Sequence record: OZ335957.1
Origin: a phage
Reading direction: 5' to 3' (one strand)
DNA: 40,153 nucleotides
Position numbers and translations under genes: made by a program. Within the stretch, counting starts at the first letter, position 1, and every line of letters starts with the position of its first letter. The notes beneath the pieces were generated by a model. That model was given only the letters and a program-made list of their open reading frames with translations. It made no database searches and was not told the origin of the DNA. This document shows, one piece after another, positions 1-40,153 of this stretch.

Positions 1-1764
1 TTGAGTAAAGATTTAGTGGCTCGTCAGGCGCTAATGACTGCCCGTATGAAGGCAGACTTCGTGTTCTTCCTGTTCGTCCTGTGGAAAGCTCTGTCACTAC
101 CAGTCCCGACTCGATGTCAGATTGACATGGCGAAGAAACTATCGGCTGGGGACAACAGGCGTTTCATCCTACAGGCGTTCCGTGGTATCGGGAAGTCATT
201 CATTACGTGCGCATTCGTGGTATGGAAACTGTGGAACAACCCAGACTTGAAGTTCATGATTGTGTCGGCCTCAAAGGAACGAGCCGATGCAAACTCCATC
301 TTCATCAAGCGAATCATCGACCTCATGCCTCAGCTTCGGGAACTCAAACCTAAGCAGGGGCAGCGAGATGCGGTTATCAGCTTCGACGTTGGACCAGCCA
401 AGCCAGACCACTCACCTTCGGTTAAGTCCGTTGGTATCACTGGTCAGTTGACTGGTAGTCGTGCTGACATCCTGATTGCCGATGACGTGGAGGTTCCGAA
501 CAACTCAGCGACTCAGGCTGCCCGAGACCGTCTGTCAGAGCTTGTGAAAGAGTTCGACGCTATCCTGAAGCCGGGAGGTACAATCATCTATCTGGGTACT
601 CCTCAGAACGAGATGACCTTGTATCGTGAGCTGGAAGGCCGTGGGTACACCACTACTATCTGGCCTGCTCGTTATCCACGCGACAGGAAGGACTGGCAGT
701 CTTACGGCGACCGTCTGGCTCCAATGCTTCAGGCAGAGCTTGAAGAGGACCCTGAGTCATTCTACTGGCGTCCGACTGATGAAGTACGCTTCGATGATAC
801 GGACCTTAAGGAACGTGAGCTGTCATATGGTAAGGCTGGCTTCGCTCTACAGTTCATGCTTAACCCGAACCTGAGTGATGCCGAGAAGTACCCACTGAAG
901 CTCCGTGACCTTATCGTAGCGGACTTGGACCCAGCGTCCAGCCCAATGGTCTACCAATGGTTACCGAACCCTCAGAACAAGCGTGAGGACGTTCCTAACG
1001 TTGGACTCATGGGTGACTCGTACCACACGTATCAGACTGTAGGTTCTGCCTTCAGCTCATACACCCAGAAGATTCTGGTCATTGACCCTAGTGGTCGTGG
1101 TAAGGATGAAACTGGCTATGCGGTACTGTATCAGCTTAATGGCTACATCTTCGCTATGGAAGTTGGTGGTATGCGTGGTGGTTATGAAGACTCTACGCTT
1201 GAAGCACTGGCTAAGATTGGTCGTAAGTGGAAGGTCAACGAATACGTCATTGAGGGTAACTTCGGTGATGGTATGTACCTTGAGCTATTCAAGCCTGTAG
1301 CGGCCCGTATCCATCCTGCGGCTGTAACTGAAGTGAAGAGTAAGGGTCAGAAAGAACTCCGCATCTGTGACGTTCTGGAGCCTATCATGGGATCTCACCG
1401 ACTTATCGTTAACGCTGCTGCTATCGTCCAAGACTACCAGTCGGCCTCTGATAAGGATGGTGTTCGTAACCCTATCTACTCTCTCTTCTACCAGATGACA
1501 CGTATCTCTCGTGAACGTGGAGCCTTGGCACACGATGACCGACTTGATGCGCTGGCTATCGGTGTACAGTTCTTCGTTGAGTCTATGGCTAAGGATGCCA
1601 ACAAGGGCGAACGTGAAGTAACTGAGGAGTGGCTGGAGGAGCAGATGGAGAACCCACGGAAAGGCTTCGAGTCCATCCACACTGAGTTCTGGGACAATGG
1701 GGTCCGGGTAACTCATAATACTGACGACGAGCTGGGACTAGGGTCCTACGTTACGTTCCACTAG
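1..1764 (+). CDS. 19: Terminase large subunit (T7 gp19-like), apparently full length with TTG as first codon at window position 1
   Basis: 587-aa ORF collinear with T7 gp19 (586 aa): [13 protein letters not shown], [60 protein letters not shown] motifs. Confidence 0.9.
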
Positions 1765-1858
1765 CTGAATGAATAACTATGGGTGAAAGCTGCATGAATA
1801 CGCAGTTAGTAACCTATAGTTACTACCAGTCTAACCTACTGTTTTACAAGGAGTTTGG

Positions 1859-1881
1859 ACTTAACTATCACTATAGGGAAG
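1859..1881 (+). promoter_or_regulatory. Phage single-subunit RNAP promoter (right-end, phiOR-like position), +1 G at 1876
   Basis: ACTTAACTATCACTATA GGGAAG; one of 10 copies of the CTATCACTATAGG core; lies between gene 19 and the terminal repeat. Confidence 0.75.
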
Positions 1882-2060
1882 ACCCCCGGTTACTTATAGT
1901 ATTACTGTAGTGAATATACATATGCAGACTTTATGCAAGACCTTAGGAGGCAGACTCCAAGTTCTTACCTAAGGCTTGCACCGATGGAAGGAGGTGATAT
2001 TAATCATAATACCTCCAATACAGATAGTCACAGACCATAGATACAGGAGGTATGTAGCAT

Positions 2061-2219
2061 ATGGCAAAGACCAAAGCTGTACTTAAAGCTCTGGCGACCA
2101 ATCGAGCTACATACAGGTTTCTTGCTGCTGTTCTACTTGCTGCTGGCGTTACTGCTGGAAGTCAGTGGGTCGGGTGGGTCGAGACTCTCATATGTTCTCT
2201 GGTGTCTGAGTGTCGTTAA
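2061..2219 (+). CDS. Small hydrophobic protein (52 aa) in the gene 19.5 position
   Basis: ATG 8 nt after AGGAGGT; one predicted TM-like segment (FLAAVLLAAGVTAG); position after terminase as in T7 gene 19.5. Confidence 0.35.
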   Translation: MAKTKAVLKALATNRATYRFLAAVLLAAGVTAGSQWVGWVETLICSLVSECR

Positions 2220-2453
2220 CTCCGTAATGGTAACAATCAACGAAAGGAGGTAGTATGGACGAAGAGTCTTACGGTTCGTTCTCTGAAGAGGACTATAAGA
2301 CGGAGTGGGAATACGCCCATTGAAGACCTAAGGTCAGTTCATAGCTGACGCTACTCTACTGACCTTAGCTACTGTAGTCAAGGACTTTAGGTAACACCTT
2401 AAGAGAAGCTCACTTAGGGTCATCCTACTTATTGGTCTATCCTAGTGTCGCCT

Positions 2454-2493
2454 GACCTACGGTCCTTGACCTACAGTGGCTGTGGCCTACAGT
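2454..2493 (+). repeat. Short direct repeats (GACCTACGG / GACCTACAGT / GGCCTACAGT) left of the terminal repeat
   Basis: Three related 9-10 bp copies within 40 bp, directly upstream of the presumed genome terminus. Confidence 0.5.
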
Positions 2494-2531
2494 AGTGACG
2501 ATGAGTTTTGGACCAAAAGTTTGAGACCACA

Positions 2532-2725
2532 TCTCACAGTTCAAGAACCTCAAGTCTCCCCATAGGCCCTCTTTAAGTCCAGACCAAAGGCCCTACCCAA
2601 GTCTATCATAAGGTTAGACCGATGGTCAAGACTTCAGGTCAACGATAGGTGGTGACTATGGCTTAGGGAAGGACGATAGGTGGTGACTATAGGTCTGTCT
2701 TTGAGTCTCTATCTGTATCAGACCT
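2532..2725 (+). repeat. Presumed terminal repeat (collapsed to one copy) beginning at the genome left terminus TCTCACAGT; right boundary approximate
   Basis: ATCTCACAGTTCAAGAACC...CCCCATAGGCCCTCTTTAAG matches the conserved left-end sequence of T7/T3 (TCTCA(C/T)AGT...); region is non-coding and flanked by short repeat arrays as in T7. Confidence 0.45.
2642..2690 (+). repeat. Perfect 18-bp direct repeat ACGATAGGTGGTGACTAT x2 (2642-2659 and 2673-2690)
   Basis: Exact duplication read directly from the sequence, 13-bp spacer. Confidence 0.85.
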
Positions 2726-2734
2726 TGAGTCACT

Positions 2735-2820
2735 AACTACAGTCTAACTACCTACAGTCTAACTACCTACAGTCATCGACCATCGGTAATGCTGATACCT
2801 ACAGTCTAAACCTACAGTTA
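2735..2820 (+). repeat. Array of CCTACAGT(C) short repeats including a tandem 15-bp unit TAACTACCTACAGTC x2
   Basis: Copies at 2737, 2751, 2766, 2798, 2811; analogous in position to the ACCTAAAG-type repeats right of the T7 terminal repeat. Confidence 0.6.
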
Positions 2821-3241
2821 ATAGACACAATGGCTATAGACTTAAGGTCTAAGACATGTTAGTCAAAGACTATATCCTCTTACACCATGGGGCCGACGAT
2901 AGCTTAATCAATATTATTTCAAATTACCTATTGACTATAGGTCCAGACTATGGCCTAATAGCTTCCGTCAACACGACACGGCAACAACCGGATAGTGAAG
3001 ACGCCGGTGTCATCCCGGTTAAGTAGACAGCCTGATAAGTCATACGAACAACAGGCAGATGACAATAAGGTAGTAAGGTCGCTGAGGGCTTCCACTTCAG
3101 CAGGTCGGAAAGGTCCTAAAACCTAACGAGAGTCTGACCAGCTCGCCAAGTCTGCCACTGAGGTGGATAACCAGAGGAGGCAACGTGTCGCCCACTGAGG
3201 GGCTACAGCTCACAGTTTAGGTTAACAGGCTAAACAAATGC

Positions 3242-3271
3242 TTGACAAGATGTAACGATAAGATGTAATAT
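3242..3271 (+). promoter_or_regulatory. Host sigma70-type early promoter (T7 A3-like)
   Basis: -35 TTGACA (3242-3247), 18-bp spacer, -10 TAATAT (3266-3271); flanking sequence resembles the T7 A2/A3 region (..TTGACAA..GTAA..; downstream GCTCTTTAACAATCTGG). Confidence 0.6.
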
Positions 3272-3449
3272 TTACCACATCGAAACAACGGTGATGACCA
3301 ACACTGAAATGGTCTACCTGAAGTCCTCTGACTGAAGGGAATGCTCTTTAACAATCTGGATAAACTCTTAATGTGCGCCGATAGCGACTAACTACAGGGC
3401 CTTTGAGCCTACATCTGAAGGCCCTGACTGATAGTCACTAACTTAACGG

Positions 3450-3704
3450 ATGGACACTATGAAACACTTAAGCACAATCACTAATCGCAATGAAGTATTC
3501 GTGAACACTAAAGGTTATGCGTGGATTCAGCTTAAAGAGATGAGAGGAGCGCGTCACCGTGTGGTAGTGCGCAAGGTATCAAGCAAGCAGTTCAGCAACT
3601 ACAGCGTCGATACTGTGCGTATAGACAACGAGACATACCTGATAGACTCGCAGATAACCGTGAGTACTACAGCGGGCGTCTCAGCTCCTTATTTCGCTAA
3701 CTGA
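3450..3704 (+). CDS. Hypothetical early protein (84 aa), first ORF after the early promoters
   Basis: ORF in early leader position; weak RBS; alternative start at 3459; no recognisable motif. Confidence 0.4.
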   Translation: MDTMKHLSTITNRNEVFVNTKGYAWIQLKEMRGARHRVVVRKVSSKQFSNYSVDTVRIDNETYLIDSQITVSTTAGVSAPYFAN

Positions 3705-5150: not shown

Positions 5151-7832
5151 ATGAGCGTCATCTCTATTGATAAACACGACTTCTCTGATGTGTCTAACGC
5201 CATTGAGCCGTTTAACCTGCTGGCTGACCACTACGGGCAAGACCTTGCAGTCAAACAGCTTCAGCTTGAGCATGAGGCCTACACTGAAGGCGAGCGACGT
5301 TTCATCAAGAACCTTGAGCGTCAGACCGAGCGAGGGGAACTGGCAGACAATCAGGTCGCCAAGCCTTTGATGCAGACTCTGGTTCCTAAGATTGCGCAAG
5401 CCGTCAAGGAGTGGCACGAAGGTCCAGACGGGAAGCTGTCAACCTCACGTCCGAGCGTAGCGTTCACCATGTTAAGCACTGAAGAGAAGGCCGTCAAGGA
5501 CCGCTCTCTTCGCATCTCCTGCGAGTCTGCTGCGGTTATCATACTGAAGGTCATCCTCTCCAAGCTGGTCAAGCCTGAAGGTATACCGATTACACCGATG
5601 GCCTCCGCGATAGGTCGCACACTTGAGGATGAAATCCGATTCGGTCGCATTCGTGACAAGGAGAAGGAGCACTTCAAGAAGGCGATAGCTGATAACCTGA
5701 ACAAGAGAGCCGGGGCATCATACAAGAAAGCCTACATGCAAGCGGTCGAGACATCCATGCTGGAGCAAGGCCAACTAGAAGATGCGTGGGGAACTTGGAG
5801 TCCGACCGAGGCTGTCCACGTTGGAATCAAGATGCTGGAGATTGTCATACAGTCAACACAACTGGTCGAGCTTAAGCGTTACGGTGCTGGCAATGCAACG
5901 GCTGACGTTGAGATGGTCCACCTGTCAGACTTCTGGGTCAAGAAGATGGCACAACGCGGCTTCAGCCTTGCGGGTATCGCTCCAGTCTACCAACCTTGCG
6001 TAGTTCCACCTAAGCCGTGGACTGGTGTCGTAGGCGGTGGGTACTGGGCCAAAGGTCGCAGACCATTACCACTGATTCGCTTAGGGTCTAAGTCTGCGGT
6101 GGCACGTTACGAAGACGTGTATATGCCTGAAGTCTATGACGCTGTTAACATCATCCAGAATACACCTTGGAAAGTGAACAAGAAGGTTCTGGACGTGGTG
6201 AACATGGTCGAGAAGTTGAACAACACGCCTATTGATGACATCCCTCAGATGGAGCCACTGAAGCCTGAAGAATATGCGGGTGAGACTGAAGAGGAACTCA
6301 AGGCGTGGAAGAAAGCGGCTGCTGGTATCTATCGCCGCGAGAAGGCCAGACAGTCACGCAGATTGTCGCTGAGCTTTATCGTTAACCAAGCGAACAAGTT
6401 CTCTCAGTTCAAGGCCATCTGGTTCCCGTACAACATGGACTGGCGCGGTCGCGTCTACGCTGTGCCGATGTTCAACCCTCAGGGTAACGACATGCAAAAG
6501 GGTCTACTGACTCTGGCAGTCGGTAAGCCTATTGGTGCTGATGGTTTCAAATGGCTGAAGGTCCACGGTGCAAACTGTGCGGGTGTCGATAAAGTCACCT
6601 TCGAGGAGCGCATCAAGTGGGTGGAAGACAACCACGACAACATCATGGCTGCTGCTAAGGCACCGATGGATAGCATTGAGTGGTGGGGCAAGTTAGACTC
6701 TCCTTTCTGCTTCCTTGCGTTCTGCTTCGAGTATGCTGGCGTGATGCACCACGGATTGTCTTACTCCTGCTCGCTGCCGATAGCTTTCGATGGGTCCTGC
6801 TCTGGGATTCAGCACTTCAGCGCTATGCTTCGTGACCACATCGGTGGACATGCAGTAAACCTGACGCCTTCCGGTAAGGTCCAAGACATCTACCGCATCG
6901 TTTCTGACCGCATTGAGGAAGAGCTTAAAGTCCTGCTGGTTAACGGCACGGACAACGAGATGGTAACTCACGAGGACAAGAAAACTGGTGAGATTACCGA
7001 GCGTCTCAAGCTGGGGACACGAGAGCTGGCCCGTCAGTGGCTGACCTACGGTATGTCACGCAAGGTTACTAAGCGCTCAGTCATGACTCTGGCCTACGGG
7101 TCGAAAGAGTACGGCTTCGCAGACCAAGTTTACGAGGACATCGTGATGCCCGCGATTGACTCAGGGTCTGGCGCTATGTTCACTGAACCAAGCCAAGCAT
7201 CTCGCTTCATGGCTAAGATGATTTGGGAAGCTGTGAGTGTGACCGTAGTTGCTGCGGTTGACGCGATGAAATGGCTTCAGGGTGCTGCCAAGCTGCTGGC
7301 GGCTGAAGTGAAGGACAAGAAGACTGGCGAAATCCTGAAGCCTTGCCTTCCGGTACACTGGGTCACACCTGATGGGTTCCCGGTCTGGCAGGAATACCGC
7401 AAGAAGGATACCACTCGTCTGAATCTGATGTTCTTAGGGTCATTCAACCTTCAGCCTACCGTCAACAAAGGCACGAAGAAAGAGCTGGATAAGCACAAGC
7501 AGGAGTCAGGCATTAGCCCGAACTTCGTCCACTCACAAGATGGTAGCCACCTCCGCAAGACTGTAGTCCACACGCATCGCAAGTATGGCGTGATGTCATT
7601 CGCAGTGATTCATGATAGCTTCGGGACAATCCCGGCTGACGCTGAATATCTGTTCCGTGGTGTCCGTGAGACGATGGTCGAGACCTACCGCGACAACGAT
7701 GTGCTGCTTGACTTCTACGAGCAGTTTGAATACCAGCTTCACGAGAGCCAGCGCAATAAGTTGCCAGAGCTTCCGAAGAAAGGTAAACTGAATATCGAAG
7801 ACATCTTGTCTTCAGACTTTGCATTCGCTTAA
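5151..7832 (+). CDS. 1: Single-subunit DNA-directed RNA polymerase (T7 gp1-like)
   Basis: 893 aa; collinear with T7 RNAP: PFNLLADHYG, CVVPPKPWTG, WFPYNMDWRGRVYAV, FCFLAFCFEY, IHDSFGT, C-terminal FAFA. Confidence 0.98.
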   Translation: MSVISIDKHDFSDVSNAIEPFNLLADHYGQDLAVKQLQLEHEAYTEGERRFIKNLERQTERGELADNQVAKPLMQTLVPKIAQAVKEWHEGPDGKLSTSRPSVAFTMLSTEEKAVKDRSLRISCESAAVIILKVILSKLVKPEGIPITPMASAIGRTLEDEIRFGRIRDKEKEHFKKAIADNLNKRAGASYKKAYMQAVETSMLEQGQLEDAWGTWSPTEAVHVGIKMLEIVIQSTQLVELKRYGAGNATADVEMVHLSDFWVKKMAQRGFSLAGIAPVYQPCVVPPKPWTGVVGGGYWAKGRRPLPLIRLGSKSAVARYEDVYMPEVYDAVNIIQNTPWKVNKKVLDVVNMVEKLNNTPIDDIPQMEPLKPEEYAGETEEELKAWKKAAAGIYRREKARQSRRLSLSFIVNQANKFSQFKAIWFPYNMDWRGRVYAVPMFNPQGNDMQKGLLTLAVGKPIGADGFKWLKVHGANCAGVDKVTFEERIKWVEDNHDNIMAAAKAPMDSIEWWGKLDSPFCFLAFCFEYAGVMHHGLSYSCSLPIAFDGSCSGIQHFSAMLRDHIGGHAVNLTPSGKVQDIYRIVSDRIEEELKVLLVNGTDNEMVTHEDKKTGEITERLKLGTRELARQWLTYGMSRKVTKRSVMTLAYGSKEYGFADQVYEDIVMPAIDSGSGAMFTEPSQASRFMAKMIWEAVSVTVVAAVDAMKWLQGAAKLLAAEVKDKKTGEILKPCLPVHWVTPDGFPVWQEYRKKDTTRLNLMFLGSFNLQPTVNKGTKKELDKHKQESGISPNFVHSQDGSHLRKTVVHTHRKYGVMSFAVIHDSFGTIPADAEYLFRGVRETMVETYRDNDVLLDFYEQFEYQLHESQRNKLPELPKKGKLNIEDILSSDFAFA

Positions 7833-28452: not shown

Positions 28453-28476
28453 CTTATTGAAGGGCCTATAGATTTA

Positions 28477-28499
28477 CCTTAACTATCACTATAGGGACT
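28477..28499 (+). promoter_or_regulatory. Phage RNAP promoter (phi13-like), +1 G at 28494, bracketed by an 11-bp perfect inverted repeat
   Basis: CCTTAACTATCACTATA GGGACT; AGGGCCTATAG (28461-28471) / CTATAGGCCCT (28497-28507). Confidence 0.8.
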
Positions 28500-28528
28500 A
28501 TAGGCCCTTAAGGTTATAAGGAGACTTT

Positions 28529-35822: not shown

Positions 35823-38800
35823 ATGTCCACGATTACACAATTCCCTTCAGGAAACACTCAGTACAGGATTGAGTTCGACTACCTAGCCAGAACGTTTGTT
35901 GTTGTTACGCTGGTGAATAACTCTAACCCTACCCTGAACCGTGTACTGGAAGTTGGTCGAGATTATCGATTCCTTAATCCAACGATGATTGAGATGTTGG
36001 TTGACCAATCAGGTTTCGACATCGTTCGCATTCACCGTCAGACTGGAACTGACTTAGTGGTAGACTTCAGGAATGGCTCAGTGTTGACGGCTAGTGACCT
36101 GACAAATTCAGAGCTTCAGGCTATCCATATTGCAGAAGAAGGTCGAGACCAAACGGTTGACTTAGCGAAGGAATATGCCGATGCTGCTGGTAGCTCTGCT
36201 GGCAACGCTAAGGATAGCGAGGACGAAGCACGCCGAATCGCTGAGAGTATCAGGGAAGCTGGTCTAATTGGCTATATGACCCGTCGCTCCTTCGAGAAAG
36301 GCTACAACGTTACAACATGGAGCGAGGTCCTGCTATGGGAAGAGGATGGTGATTATTACCGCTGGGATGGTACGCTTCCAAAGAACGTTCCTGCTGGTTC
36401 AACTCCTGAAACTTCCGGTGGGATTGGATTAGGTGCGTGGGTTAGTGTTGGTGATGCTGCTTTAAGAAGTCAGATTTCAAACCCGGAAGGGGCAATACTC
36501 TACCCTGAATTACATAGAGCACGCTGGCTTGATGAAAATGATGTTCGTGGTTGGGGTGCTAAAGGGGATGGTGTCACTGATGATACAGCAGCGTTAACGA
36601 GCGCATTAAACGACATACCGGTTGGACAAAAGATTAATGGCAATGGGAAGACATATAAGGTCACATCCCTGCCTGACATTAGTCGCTTCATCAACACTCG
36701 TTTCGTTTATGAGCGCATTCCCGGACAACCTCTTTATTATGCCTCTGAAGAATTTGTTCAGGGTGAGTTGTTCAAAATAACGGACACCCCTTATTACAAT
36801 GCGTGGCCTCAGGATAAAGCGTTCGTATATGATAATGTGATATATGCACCTTACATGGGTAGCGATCGTCATGGTGTTAGTCGTCTGCATGTGTCATGGG
36901 TTAAGTCTGGTGATGATGGTCAAACATGGTCTACTCCAGAGTGGCTAACTGATCTGCATCCAGATTACCCTACAGTGAACTATCACTGTATGAGTATGGG
37001 TGTATGTCGCAACCGTCTGTTTGCCATGATTGAAACACGTACTTTAGCCAATAACGCATTAACCAATTGTGCATTGTGGGATCGCCCCATGTCTCGTAGC
37101 CTGCATCTTACTGGTGGTATCACTAAAGCTGCAAATCAGCGATATGCAACAATACATGTACCAGACCACGGACTATTCGTGGGTGATTTTGTTAACTTCT
37201 CTAATTCTGCGGTAACAGGTGTATCCGGTGATATGACTGTTGCAACCGTAATAGATAAGGACAACTTCACGGTTCTTACACCCAACCAGCAGACTTCAGA
37301 TTTGAATAACGCTGGAAAGAATTGGCACATGGGTACTTCTTTCCATAAGTCTCCATGGCGTAAGACAGACCTTGGTCTAATCCCTCGTGTCACAGAGGTG
37401 CATAGCTTTGCTACTATTGATAACAATGGCTTTGTTATGGGCTATCATCAAGGCGATGTAGCTCCACGCGAAGTTGGGCTTTTCTACTTCCCTGATGCTT
37501 TCAATAGCCCATCTAGTTATGTTCGTCGTCAGATACCATCTGAGTATGAACCAGATGCGTCAGAGCCGTGCATCAAGTACTATGACGGTGTATTATACCT
37601 TATCACTCGTGGCACTCGTGGGGATAGACTAGGTAGCTCTTTGCATCGTAGTAGAGACATAGGTCAGACTTGGGAGTCACTGAGATTTCCACATAATGTT
37701 CATCATACTACATTACCTTTTGCTAAAGTAGGGGATGACCTTATTATGTTTGGTTCAGAACGTGCAGAAAATGAATGGGAAGCAGGTGCACCAGATGATA
37801 GGTACAAGGCATCTTATCCTCGCACCTTCTATGCACGCTTGAATGTAAACAATTGGAATGCAGATGATATTGAATGGGTTAACATCACTGACCAGATTTA
37901 TCAGGGCGGAATAGTTAACTCAGGTGTAGGTGTTGGTTCGGTAGTTGTGAAGGATAATTACATCTACTACATGTTTGGTGGAGAGGACCATTTTAACCCA
38001 TGGACATATGGAGATAACTCAGCGAGGGACCCATTCAAATCAGATGGTCATCCCTCAGATTTGTATTGCTACAAAATGAAGATTGGCCCAAGCAATCATG
38101 TTTCCCGTGATTTCAGGTATGGTGCTGTACCTAACAGAGCTGTTCCCGTGTTTTTTGATACGAATGGGATTCGCACTGTTCCTGCGCCAATGGAATTTAC
38201 AGGGGATTTGGGTTTAGGTCATGTGACCATTAGAGCCAGCACCAGTAGTAACATTCGCTCTGAAGTTTTAATGGAAGGTGAATATGGGTTTATCGGGAAA
38301 TCTATACCGACTGATAACCCGGCAGGGCAGCGCACCATATTTTGCGGGGGTGAAGGCACCAGTTCAACGACTGGCGCACAGATTACGCTTCATGGTGCAA
38401 ATAGCACCGACTCAAGGCGAATAGTTTACAATGGTGATGAGCATCTGTTCCAGACTGCTGACGTTAAGCCTTATCACGATAACGTCACTGCGCTTGGTGG
38501 ACCACGTAACCGTTTCACAACTGCATATCTCGGAAGCAACCCTATTGTTACTTCTAATGGGGAGAGGAAAACAGAGCCGGTAGTTTTTGATGATGCTTTC
38601 CTAGATGCCTGGGATGACGTTCACTACATCATGTATCAATGGTTAGACGCTGTTCAACTGAAAGGCAATGATGCTCGTATTCACTTCGGGGTTATTGCTC
38701 AGCAAATTCGTGATGTATTCATTGCACACGGTCTGATGGATGAAAACAGTACGAATTGTCGTTATGCAGTTCTGTGCTATGACAAGTATCCACGGATGAC

Positions 38801-39017: not shown

Positions 39018-39151
39018 TAAACAAAAACCTTTTGCCATTAAGTTGGTGGGGTAGATGTTAGAAGGTTGTGGAGGTAGAGGCTAACTACACGCTAAACAAC
39101 ATAGGGTAACAACTTTGGGTCACGGACGACCCGCTTTAAACTGGAGGTTTT

Positions 39152-39346
39152 ATGATTGAGTTAGACTTCAAGAATGAGGTCCTTAAAGCCTCTCCTATAG
39201 TCGGGACCGCTGCGGCTGATGGTGCCAGTCGGTTCTTCTTCGGACTCACACTTAACGAATGGTTCTACGTTGCAGCTATCGCGTACACCGTTGTCCAGAT
39301 TGGTGTGCTAGTCTACAAAACGATTAAAGGAGGTGGTAAAACATGA
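39152..39346 (+). CDS. 17.5: Holin (T7 gp17.5-like)
   Basis: 64 aa; LNEWFYVAAIAYTVVQIG transmembrane segment nearly identical to T7 gp17.5. Confidence 0.85.
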   Translation: MIELDFKNEVLKASPIVGTAAADGASRFFFGLTLNEWFYVAAIAYTVVQIGVLVYKTIKGGGKT

Positions 39347-39606
39347 CGCAGATGGACTTAGAGAAGTTCCTCTTGATGCTAGATACTGAACGTGCTCGAC
39401 TCATGCTGCAAGACCTGCGGGATGACACTAAGCGTTCACCTCAGCTTTACAACGCCATTGAGAAGCTACTGGCTCGTCACAACTTCGTGCTAAGCAAGGT
39501 GTCTGTAGACGAGAAGACTCTGGCTGATATGGAGGCCCTGAACGCAGAGTACGATAAGGTTCTTTCAGCGACTGAGGATAATGACACAGGGTATGGTGTT
39601 CAATAA
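39343..39606 (+). CDS. 18: Terminase small subunit (T7 gp18-like)
   Basis: 87 aa; LLMLDTERARLMLQDL...RSPQLYNAIEKLLARH matches T7 gp18. Confidence 0.88.
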   Translation: MTQMDLEKFLLMLDTERARLMLQDLRDDTKRSPQLYNAIEKLLARHNFVLSKVSVDEKTLADMEALNAEYDKVLSATEDNDTGYGVQ

Positions 39607-39610
39607 GTGT

Positions 39611-39655
39611 TAGACTCAAGGTCATTACTATATGTAGTGGCCTTTATGGTTAACA
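39611..39655 (+). promoter_or_regulatory. Conserved hairpin element, copy 3 (RNase III site-like, R18.5 position)
   Basis: TAGACTCAAGGTCATTACTATATGTAGTGGCCTTTATGGTTAAC. Confidence 0.4.
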
Positions 39656-39707
39656 CTAACTAGTGGAGGAGACTCTACGTGAAATCTGATAAACCGGGAG
39701 GGCAACT

Positions 39708-40153
39708 ATGCTCGAATTTTTAAAGAGAGCGGCTCCGTGGTTACTTGCAGCAGTGATGTTTGCTGGTGGCTACCACACCGCTAACAATAAGTGGGAGGCT
39801 AAGGTCAATGAAGAATACACCTCGAATCTTAAGGCATCGGAAGATACAAGGCTTGCTGTCCAAGCTGAAGTCAACAAAGTGTCCAAACGGTTTCAGGACG
39901 AAATGTCCTCGCTGGAAGGCAGCACTGATAGGATTATTGCTGACCTTCAGTCTGACAATAAGCGGCTGCGCATCCGAGTCAAACCAACGAGTGGAACCAC
40001 GCAAAGTGACGGTCGATGCGTCATTGATGGTTACGCCGAACTTGACGAACGAGATGCTAAACGTCTTATCGCCATCGGAGTGAAAGGAGACAAGTGGATT
40101 AAGGCCCTTCAGGACACTGTGAGAGCCTTGCAGCAAGATAAGGAGGTGACGCA
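39708..40153 (+). CDS. 18.5: i-spanin (Rz-like, T7 gp18.5-like), 3' end truncated by window edge
   Basis: MLEFLKRAAPWLLAAVMFAGG N-terminal TM; EGSTDRIIADLQSDNKRLRIRVK and DERDAKRLIA match T7 gp18.5; GGGAGGG RBS. Confidence 0.85.
   Translation, partial: MLEFLKRAAPWLLAAVMFAGGYHTANNKWEAKVNEEYTSNLKASEDTRLAVQAEVNKVSKRFQDEMSSLEGSTDRIIADLQSDNKRLRIRVKPTSGTTQSDGRCVIDGYAELDERDAKRLIAIGVKGDKWIKALQDTVRALQQDKEVT
39808..40083 (+). CDS. 18.7: o-spanin (Rz1-like lipoprotein, T7 gp18.7-like) nested in +1 frame inside i-spanin gene
   Basis: Lipobox LTISGC; PRWKAALIGLLL and SLMVTPNLTNEMLNV match T7 gp18.7; GGGAGG RBS. Confidence 0.8.
   Translation: MKNTPRILRHRKIQGLLSKLKSTKCPNGFRTKCPRWKAALIGLLLTFSLTISGCASESNQRVEPRKVTVDASLMVTPNLTNEMLNVLSPSE

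Follow-up and report, generated by a model that had tools for sequence, protein, structure and literature searches.

A probable T7-type concatemer junction in the circularly assembled genome of a K1F-like phage

We analysed a phage DNA of 40,153 nucleotides (sequence record OZ335957.1; called the window below, meaning this whole stretch at its full length) and conclude, with a probability of about 0.9, that positions 2322–2820 are the concatemer junction of a K1F-like (Kayfunavirus) phage of the T7 group, whose two genome ends met through circular assembly. Virion DNA would run from 2532 to 2710 and carry a 179-bp repeat at both ends, whereas concatemers, like the assembly, would hold one copy. 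We observed what the parts are and where they lie, and list them here in their order along the window; polymerase pausing, hairpin formation, recognition by the terminase and a role of the repeat arrays are what we infer from them, and each is discussed with the part concerned.

1–1764: TerL, 587 amino acids, 66% identical to T7 gp19.
1859–1881, plus strand: phiOR, a phage-RNA-polymerase promoter (ACTTAACTATCACTATAGGGAAG), identical at 23 of 23 positions to phiOR of EcoDS1 (EU734172).
2061–2219, plus strand: gene 19.5, 52 amino acids, the last conserved gene before the junction, its product near-identical to EcoDS1 gp19.5.
2322–2531, plus strand: conserved non-coding block of right-end unique DNA, defined by conservation across 21 related junctions.
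2328–2368 (arms 2328–2338 and 2358–2368): perfect 11-bp inverted repeat, CTAAGGTCAGT / ACTGACCTTAG, with a 19-nt loop, from a repeat search (100% complementarity).
2454, 2468 and 2484, plus strand: short-repeat copies before the terminal repeat, GACCTACGGT, GACCTACAGT and GGCCTACAGT, respectively, read from the sequence.
2532–2710, plus strand: direct terminal repeat of 179 bp, present as a single copy, identical at 178 of 179 positions to the Vec13 repeat.
2642–2696 (2642–2665 and 2673–2696), plus strand: internal direct repeat, ACGATAGGTGGTGACTAT twice with 31-nt spacing, from a repeat search (duplicated 14-mers).
2711–2717, plus strand: ATCTGTA, the first bases past the terminal repeat, in the position of ATCTGTT in T7 and T3.
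2732–2774, plus strand: tandem 15-mer of the post-repeat array, 2.9 copies of ACTACCTACAGTCTA, TRF score 79.
2798 and 2811, plus strand: post-repeat copies of CCTACAGT; the whole post-repeat array spans 2732–2818.
2931–2967, plus strand: first host-RNA-polymerase early promoter (A1 type), the right bound of the junction region, identical at 34 of 37 positions to EcoDS1 469–505.

The region 1800–3500 matched 390 phage records, nearly all of them Kayfunavirus (K1F-like, Studiervirinae), with identities of up to 97%. Many Kayfunavirus records matched it at 90–97%, and similarity together with synteny, over this region and across the join between the end and the start of the window, assigns the phage to that genus. 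The window encodes a T7-type terminase and a single-subunit RNA polymerase: in addition to TerL, we found a small terminase, gp18, with 52% identity to T7 gp18 over 62 aligned residues, and an 893-amino-acid polymerase with 62% identity to T7 gp1. The TTG start codon of TerL is position 1, the window closes with the ribosome-binding site of this gene, and the end-to-start join aligns without a gap to Vec13 36800–37300 at 99.6% identity. Taken together, these observations indicate a complete genome that was circularised by the assembly and rotated to TerL. Thus, judged by its sequence, the window is a complete genome of a Kayfunavirus (K1F-like, T7 group) in circularised form. A first-pass annotation, made from the letters alone, had proposed that the assembly was circularly closed and contained the terminal repeat once; the gap-free join confirms the closure, and no second copy of any 14-mer from 2532–2710 was found in the window, the internal direct repeat aside. 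Two of the records that hold this Kayfunavirus junction, at 86–87% identity, are labelled as an Acinetobacter phage (PV615262.1, vB_Aba_01KA; 92% identity over window 1800–3500) and an Enterococcus phage (MT350292.1, EFA-1), and these host labels look doubtful.

We located the genome ends by comparison with relatives. Counting both strands, the window has a single copy of the left-end motif TCTCACAGTTCAAGAACC, which begins at 2532 on the plus strand; it agrees with the left end of T3 at 17 of 18 bases and with that of T7 at 14 of 18. We searched with positions 2531–2720 and aligned the first bases of the records found to window 2532. Position 2532 (TCTCACAGTT...) proved to be base 1 of Vec13, K1F, EcoDS1, Peacock, SH3, SH4 and other records with defined ends; Penshu1, HC13 and both GenBank versions of K1F also begin at the equivalent base, as do at least 11 related records or contigs in all. 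A scan of IMG/VR with the left-end motif returned 31 loci, among which are several contigs that begin with the motif or stop 179–191 nt past it. Run-off sequencing of virion DNA had fixed the ends of SH3, SH4 and SH5 (PMC4925675), and in the records of Peacock and Penshu1 the direct terminal repeat was predicted from reads by PhageTerm. The T7/T3-like left-end sequence on which the first-pass annotation had placed a physical end, at about 2532, is therefore the place at which relatives' records begin. The comparison with the K1F and T3 ends that it had suggested gives the same answer, as base 1 of K1F is window 2532 and the T3 boundaries align base for base.

The extent of the repeat follows from the same relatives. 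Vec13 (99.5% identical) carries an annotated 'long terminal repeat' at 1–179 and 39569–39747, and EcoDS1 a 'terminal repeat' at 1–178 and 39075–39252; the K1F repeat has been reported as 179 bp (PMC4925675). When we measured the exact repeat shared by the two ends of a record, we obtained 179 bp for Vec13, 178 bp for EcoDS1, 178 bp for K1F (where it is unannotated), 160 bp for T7 and 231 bp for T3. The repeats of K1F, EcoDS1, Peacock and EPr2 are 178–179 bp long, and lengths among relatives range from 166 to 231 bp. A single substitution separates window 2532–2710 from the Vec13 repeat, and it is by this homology that the segment is recognised as a short exact repeat (about 160–240 bp) expected at both virion ends and once per junction. 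The left and right genome ends of this isolate would accordingly be 2532 and 2710, as far as homology with its relatives can tell. Since the repeat occurs once in the 40153-bp circle, the virion genome would be 40153 + 179 = 40332 bp long. For annotation, the record can be re-oriented to 2532 and the 179-bp repeat added at its right end, which gives the 40332-bp form.

Some observations concern the repeat and its records in other respects. The internal direct repeat sits in the variable half of the terminal repeat, its least conserved part. The record of the Providencia phage EPr2 (OM256482.1) has a 179-bp repeat at 1–179 and again at 501–679, with right-end unique DNA between them; because the repeat is duplicated within 1–679, this record appears to hold a junction near its left end and not the true termini. 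PP328844.1 (41264 bp), with four matching places, looks like a similar case. A leftward sigma-70-like site lies inside the window's terminal repeat at 2629–2600 on the minus strand (TTGACC, 18 nt, TAGACT, plus an upstream TG). Identified by its pattern alone, the site recalls A0, a leftward promoter annotated within the repeat of T3. The sigma-70 scan yielded weak matches in the arrays besides this one leftward match in the repeat, and we gave these matches no evidential weight.

Both edges of the repeat align base for base with those of T7 and T3, as ...A/TCTCAYAGT on the left and ...CT/ATCTGT on the right (a slash marks the cut here and below):

Window: left cut AAAAGTTTGAGACCACA/TCTCACAGTT; right cut GAGTCTCT/ATCTGTATCAG.
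T7: left cut AAAAATCTGAGTGACTA/TCTCACAGTG; right cut GTGTCCCT/ATCTGTTACAG.
T3: left cut AAAAATCTGAATGGGTA/TCTCATAGTT; right cut GTGTCCCT/ATCTGTTAG.

In this alignment, the window, T7 and T3 share TCTCAYAGT and, before it, AAAA..T.TGA......A; both boundaries are conserved across three genera. The repeat ends directly before ATCTGT in T7, T3, Vec13, EcoDS1, SH4 and two IMG/VR genomes, and relative to this boundary the right end of the record is one base short in K1F and four bases over in SH3. When we rebuilt junctions from Vec13, K1F and EcoDS1 by joining the right end, one repeat and the left end, the products were collinear with window 2200–3040 from end to end. This shows directly that the genome ends are present in the window in their concatemer form. 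A phage that packages by the headful mechanism from a pac site, with permuted ends, would also assemble as a circle, and its T7-like end sequence could be a relic. Circularity is all that recommends such an account, which has to contend with a TerL 66% identical to T7 gp19, with close relatives whose ends are fixed at the same base, by experiment or by reads, and with boundaries conserved across genera; we consider it extremely improbable and retain the reading of 2322–2820 as a junction between fixed ends.

Across the 21 related junctions, non-coding positions 2322–2600 are conserved at 0.8–1.0 per base, a level equal to that of coding DNA and higher than that of the neighbouring small ORF. 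The final 33 nt of the pre-repeat block (CGATGAGTTTTGGACCAAAAGTTTGAGACCACA, 2499–2531) are nearly invariant and contain the palindrome TTTTGGACCAAAA at 2506–2518. Positions 2699–2718, around the right boundary, are likewise conserved, whereas the right half of the repeat (2600–2690) and about 2720–2750 are variable. The terminase recognition sequence most likely lies within the block 2322–2531. Other records call small ORFs across the junction region, which can almost certainly be discounted as genes. The window has a 22-codon acidic ORF, MDEESYGSFSEEDYKTEWEYAH (2255–2323, plus strand), located between gene 19.5 and the inverted repeat, with a strong ribosome-binding site, AAAGGAGGT; this ORF is present in K1F and Vec13 and missing from most relatives (conservation about 0.2).

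Transcription by the phage polymerase would approach the junction from the left. phiOR reads rightward through gene 19.5, whose product shares the motif TYRFL with T7 gp19.5, towards the junction, and its core, AACTATCACTATAGG, recurs at nine further sites of the window that resemble phage promoters. Elsewhere, two phage promoter cores (ACTATAGGGACTATAGG) overlap, at 28488 and 28497, within 28470–28510 on the plus strand. On the other side of the junction, we looked for a counterpart of phiOL in 2711–3450, from the repeat to the first early gene, and found no phage-polymerase promoter there, only host-type promoters. A second promoter of the host type follows the A1-type promoter, with TTGACA and TAATAT separated by 18 nt at 3242–3271.

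The inverted repeat at 2328–2368 may correspond to the M-hairpin of T7, an assignment that draws on its position. It lies next to gene 19.5, and its centre is 184 nt to the left of the terminal repeat, compared with 190 nt in T7 and 184 nt in T3, where the inverted repeats are imperfect. We take the T7 hairpin to lie at about nucleotide 39,587. Folded as single-stranded DNA, the window's inverted repeat is more stable than shuffled sequences (z of −3.3 to −3.4). Its arms are invariant in all aligned Kayfunavirus junctions, and the loop occurs in three unrelated versions; invariant arms with differing loops argue for a constraint on the arms. As the arms never vary, covariation offers no means of assessing the structure. 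In T7, the M-hairpin adjoins gene 19.5, and its deletion has been linked to defects in concatemer processing in PMC2680503 and the references given there. The title of Kim & Chung (1996), with which that of Kim et al. (1997) is also cited, describes the T7 hairpin region as non-essential, and that of Chung, Nardone & Hinkle (1990) presents the proposal of a hairpin intermediate.

The stem could alternatively act in RNA, as a 3′ stabiliser or processing site of transcripts of phiOR and gene 19.5, rather than as a DNA hairpin. Its location just downstream of the last ORFs, where it would be transcribed from phiOR, and the strength of the stem fit that role. The inverted repeat has no T-run; a scan for intrinsic terminators was negative from phiOR to the junction, and an Rfam search of 1700–3600 (E ≤ 1) returned no known RNA family, only a chance microRNA match that scored 20 bits, the gathering score being 58. 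Moreover, T7 and T3 have their inverted repeats at the same distance from the terminal repeat, a position for which the literature describes a DNA hairpin. We therefore regard a function in RNA as unlikely and prefer the DNA-hairpin counterpart. The scan also disposed of the separate idea that the inverted repeat is itself an intrinsic terminator.

The first seven bases past the repeat recall ATCTGTT, the 7-bp sequence known as the class II signal, at which T7 RNA polymerase pauses or terminates (PMC11617373; bioRxiv 10.1101/2021.01.11.426313). Its sole natural copy is at the T7 concatemer junction, or CJ (PMC11617373; bioRxiv 10.1101/2021.01.11.426313; bioRxiv 10.64898/2026.02.12.705533). According to PMC3276506, citing Zhang & Studier (2004), the complex of polymerase and lysozyme pauses at CJ and interacts with gp18/gp19, leading to maturation and packaging. 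ATCTGTT lies directly past the repeat at 161 in T7, where this is the only plus-strand copy and begins at the first base after the 160-bp repeat, and at 232 in T3. In the window, the position is exact and six of the seven bases agree, the seventh being A. Of the Kayfunavirus junctions with a located boundary, all 19 have ATCTGTA, and the sequence annotated as 'concatemeric junction' in EcoDS1, CTATCTGT, is identical at 8 of 8 bases to window 2709–2716. As a check for avoidance, we counted the two heptamers on the plus strand of the window: ATCTGTA occurs once, against an expectation of about 1.5, and ATCTGTT three times. The three canonical copies lie inside genes, at 7648, 13814 and 38443, whereas T7 has ATCTGTT at the junction alone.

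In vitro, termination by the T7 polymerase is reportedly lost when any base of the 7-mer is changed (bioRxiv 10.1101/2021.01.11.426313). Because the seventh base differs and ATCTGTT occurs in genes, we only infer that a K1F-type polymerase pauses at 2711. The motif might instead be part of the right-end cutting site of the terminase alone (...CT/ATCTGT), with no polymerase pausing in this genus: ATCTGT abuts the right cut exactly, the seventh base of ATCTGTA departs from the strictly required T7 signal, and canonical ATCTGTT is tolerated within genes of the window. That account sits less easily with the conservation of the seven motif positions across three genera whose terminases differ and with the pause function that has been demonstrated experimentally for the T7 site (bioRxiv 10.64898/2026.02.12.705533; PMC3276506). 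A cutting site without pausing is in our view rather unlikely, and we continue with ATCTGTA as a putative pause signal.

If the mechanism of T7 and T3 is transferred to these parts, the phage RNA polymerase would start at phiOR (1859–1881) and move rightward across the junction, pausing at the class II-type signal ATCTGTA (2711–2717). The paused polymerase would help the terminase (gp18/gp19) and the prohead to engage the DNA, and the terminase would cut at the conserved boundaries ...CACA/TCTCACAG and ...TCTCT/ATCTGT. DNA synthesis would then duplicate the single repeat, providing one copy for each of the neighbouring genomes, and the upstream inverted repeat at 2328–2368 may serve in this last step as the hairpin intermediate.

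Short repeats flank the terminal repeat on both sides. Before it, octamers of the form CCTAC(G/A)GT stand at 2456, 2470 and 2486, at the same positions as in most relatives; after it, there are about five copies. These arrays had been noticed in the first-pass annotation, together with a tandem 15-mer after the repeat and a likeness to the arrays that flank the T7 repeat. All three points stand: three copies precede and about five follow the repeat, the tandem at 2732–2774 has a period of 15 with 2.9 copies and 96% matches, and copies of CCTAAAG could be counted beside the T7 repeats. The window contains 15 copies of CCTACAGT, compared with a mean of 1.74 and a maximum of 6 in 100 shuffles, which excludes chance as the source of the repeats, and six of the 15 fall within the 349 bp of 2470–2818. 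Among relatives, the post-repeat array holds 2–7 exact copies of CCTACAGT in differing unit structures, and such free variation, in spacing as in copy number, would be expected if the arrangement were under little or no constraint. The CCTACAGT arrays are this genus's counterpart of the CCTAAAG arrays of T7, and their involvement in processing is a hypothesis. To our knowledge, the function of the T7 arrays has been open ever since the T7 genome was sequenced.

The octamer is also dispersed over the rest of the genome. With the junction masked, CCTACAGT still occurs 9 times against about 1.2–1.7 expected, ranking 16 of 19417 8-mers, and there are 22 copies of CCTACAG where about 5 would be expected, 11 on each strand and mostly within genes. 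Examples of these dispersed copies lie at 168, 8067, 9971, 12394, 21583, 26233 and 36969 on the plus strand and at 1036, 11014 and 20207 on the minus strand. We looked for a context common to the dispersed copies of CCTACAGT and found none, the copies being mostly in genes and on both strands. The interior of T7 has no comparable excess of CCTAAAG (9 versus 5.5).

The flanking arrays may be slippage-prone, largely neutral spacer in a gene-free leading end, or sites for an unrelated DNA-binding factor, and no packaging signal. Close relatives differ in how many copies the post-repeat array has (2–7), in the length of its unit and in its spacing; other array units (AACCATAGGTCTCAAC, CCTCAAGTCAT) are gained and lost among them; variable-number repeats adjoining terminal repeats have also been recorded in Yersinia T7-like phages (PMC5923468); and the heptamer and octamer are in excess elsewhere in the genome, within genes. 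Against this, the octamer is exact within every Kayfunavirus array, its three pre-repeat copies keep fixed, conserved positions, and T7 and T3 have kept equivalent arrays, built on a motif of their own, on both sides as well. We think a neutral or unrelated array a real possibility, if the less probable one, and keep a part in processing as the working hypothesis. A more specific proposal, that the octamer arrays are sequence-specific sites for a phage protein of packaging or genome entry, one co-evolved with the genus and binding CCTACAGT here and CCTAAAG in T7/T3, is speculative and in our estimate rather improbable. Were it true, the genome-wide excess of CCTACAG(T) would reflect the same array-binding factor, and the genus-specific switch of motif would offer a handle on array function through swaps of array and protein between genera.

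The junction is already known as a standard feature of the T7 group and is annotated in close relatives; that of the window matches those of K1F, Vec13 and EcoDS1. The value of the present description is therefore in annotation, and biologically it adds one more T7-type junction and nothing new. In phages of this kind, terminal repeats join the genomes in concatemers and need to be duplicated at packaging (PMC5923468). K1F, Vec13, EcoDS1, Peacock and SH3–SH5 have the same first base and left-end sequence as the window, and the pre-repeat block, the CTATCTGT boundary, the CCTACAGT arrays and phiOR are all found in the K1F genus as they are here. The differences from the genus are at the level of the isolate only: one base of the terminal repeat is substituted, the tandem 15-mer has 2.9 copies in the window, three exact copies in Vec13 and five in SH3, and most relatives lack the ORF at 2255–2323.

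T7 shares with the window the order phiOR, gene 19.5, inverted repeat, short repeats, terminal repeat, ATCTGT, array and host promoters, and the contexts of the cut sites at both edges of the repeat are conserved between the two. They differ in the array motif, which is CCTACAGT in the window and CCTAAAG in T7, and in its placement, as the terminal repeat contains three copies of it in T7 and none in the window. Of the 22 plus-strand copies of CCTAAAG in T7, 13 lie in or beside the terminal repeats, at 17–332 and 39671–39837: three in each copy of the repeat, eight at 175–332, and those at 39671 and 39700 to the left of the right repeat. In addition, the CJ motif ends in A in the window and in T in T7, T7 has phiOL at 405, after the array, where the window has none, and the inverted repeat is a perfect 11-bp stem in the window but imperfect in T7. 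T3 is set apart from the window by its 231-bp repeat, its arrays of CCTAAAG/CTTAAAG, a phiOL at 366–388 and the leftward A0 promoter annotated in its repeat; its left end, TCTCATAGTTCAAGAACC, nevertheless agrees with that of the window at 17 of 18 bases, and its right boundary reads ...CCCT/ATCTGTT.
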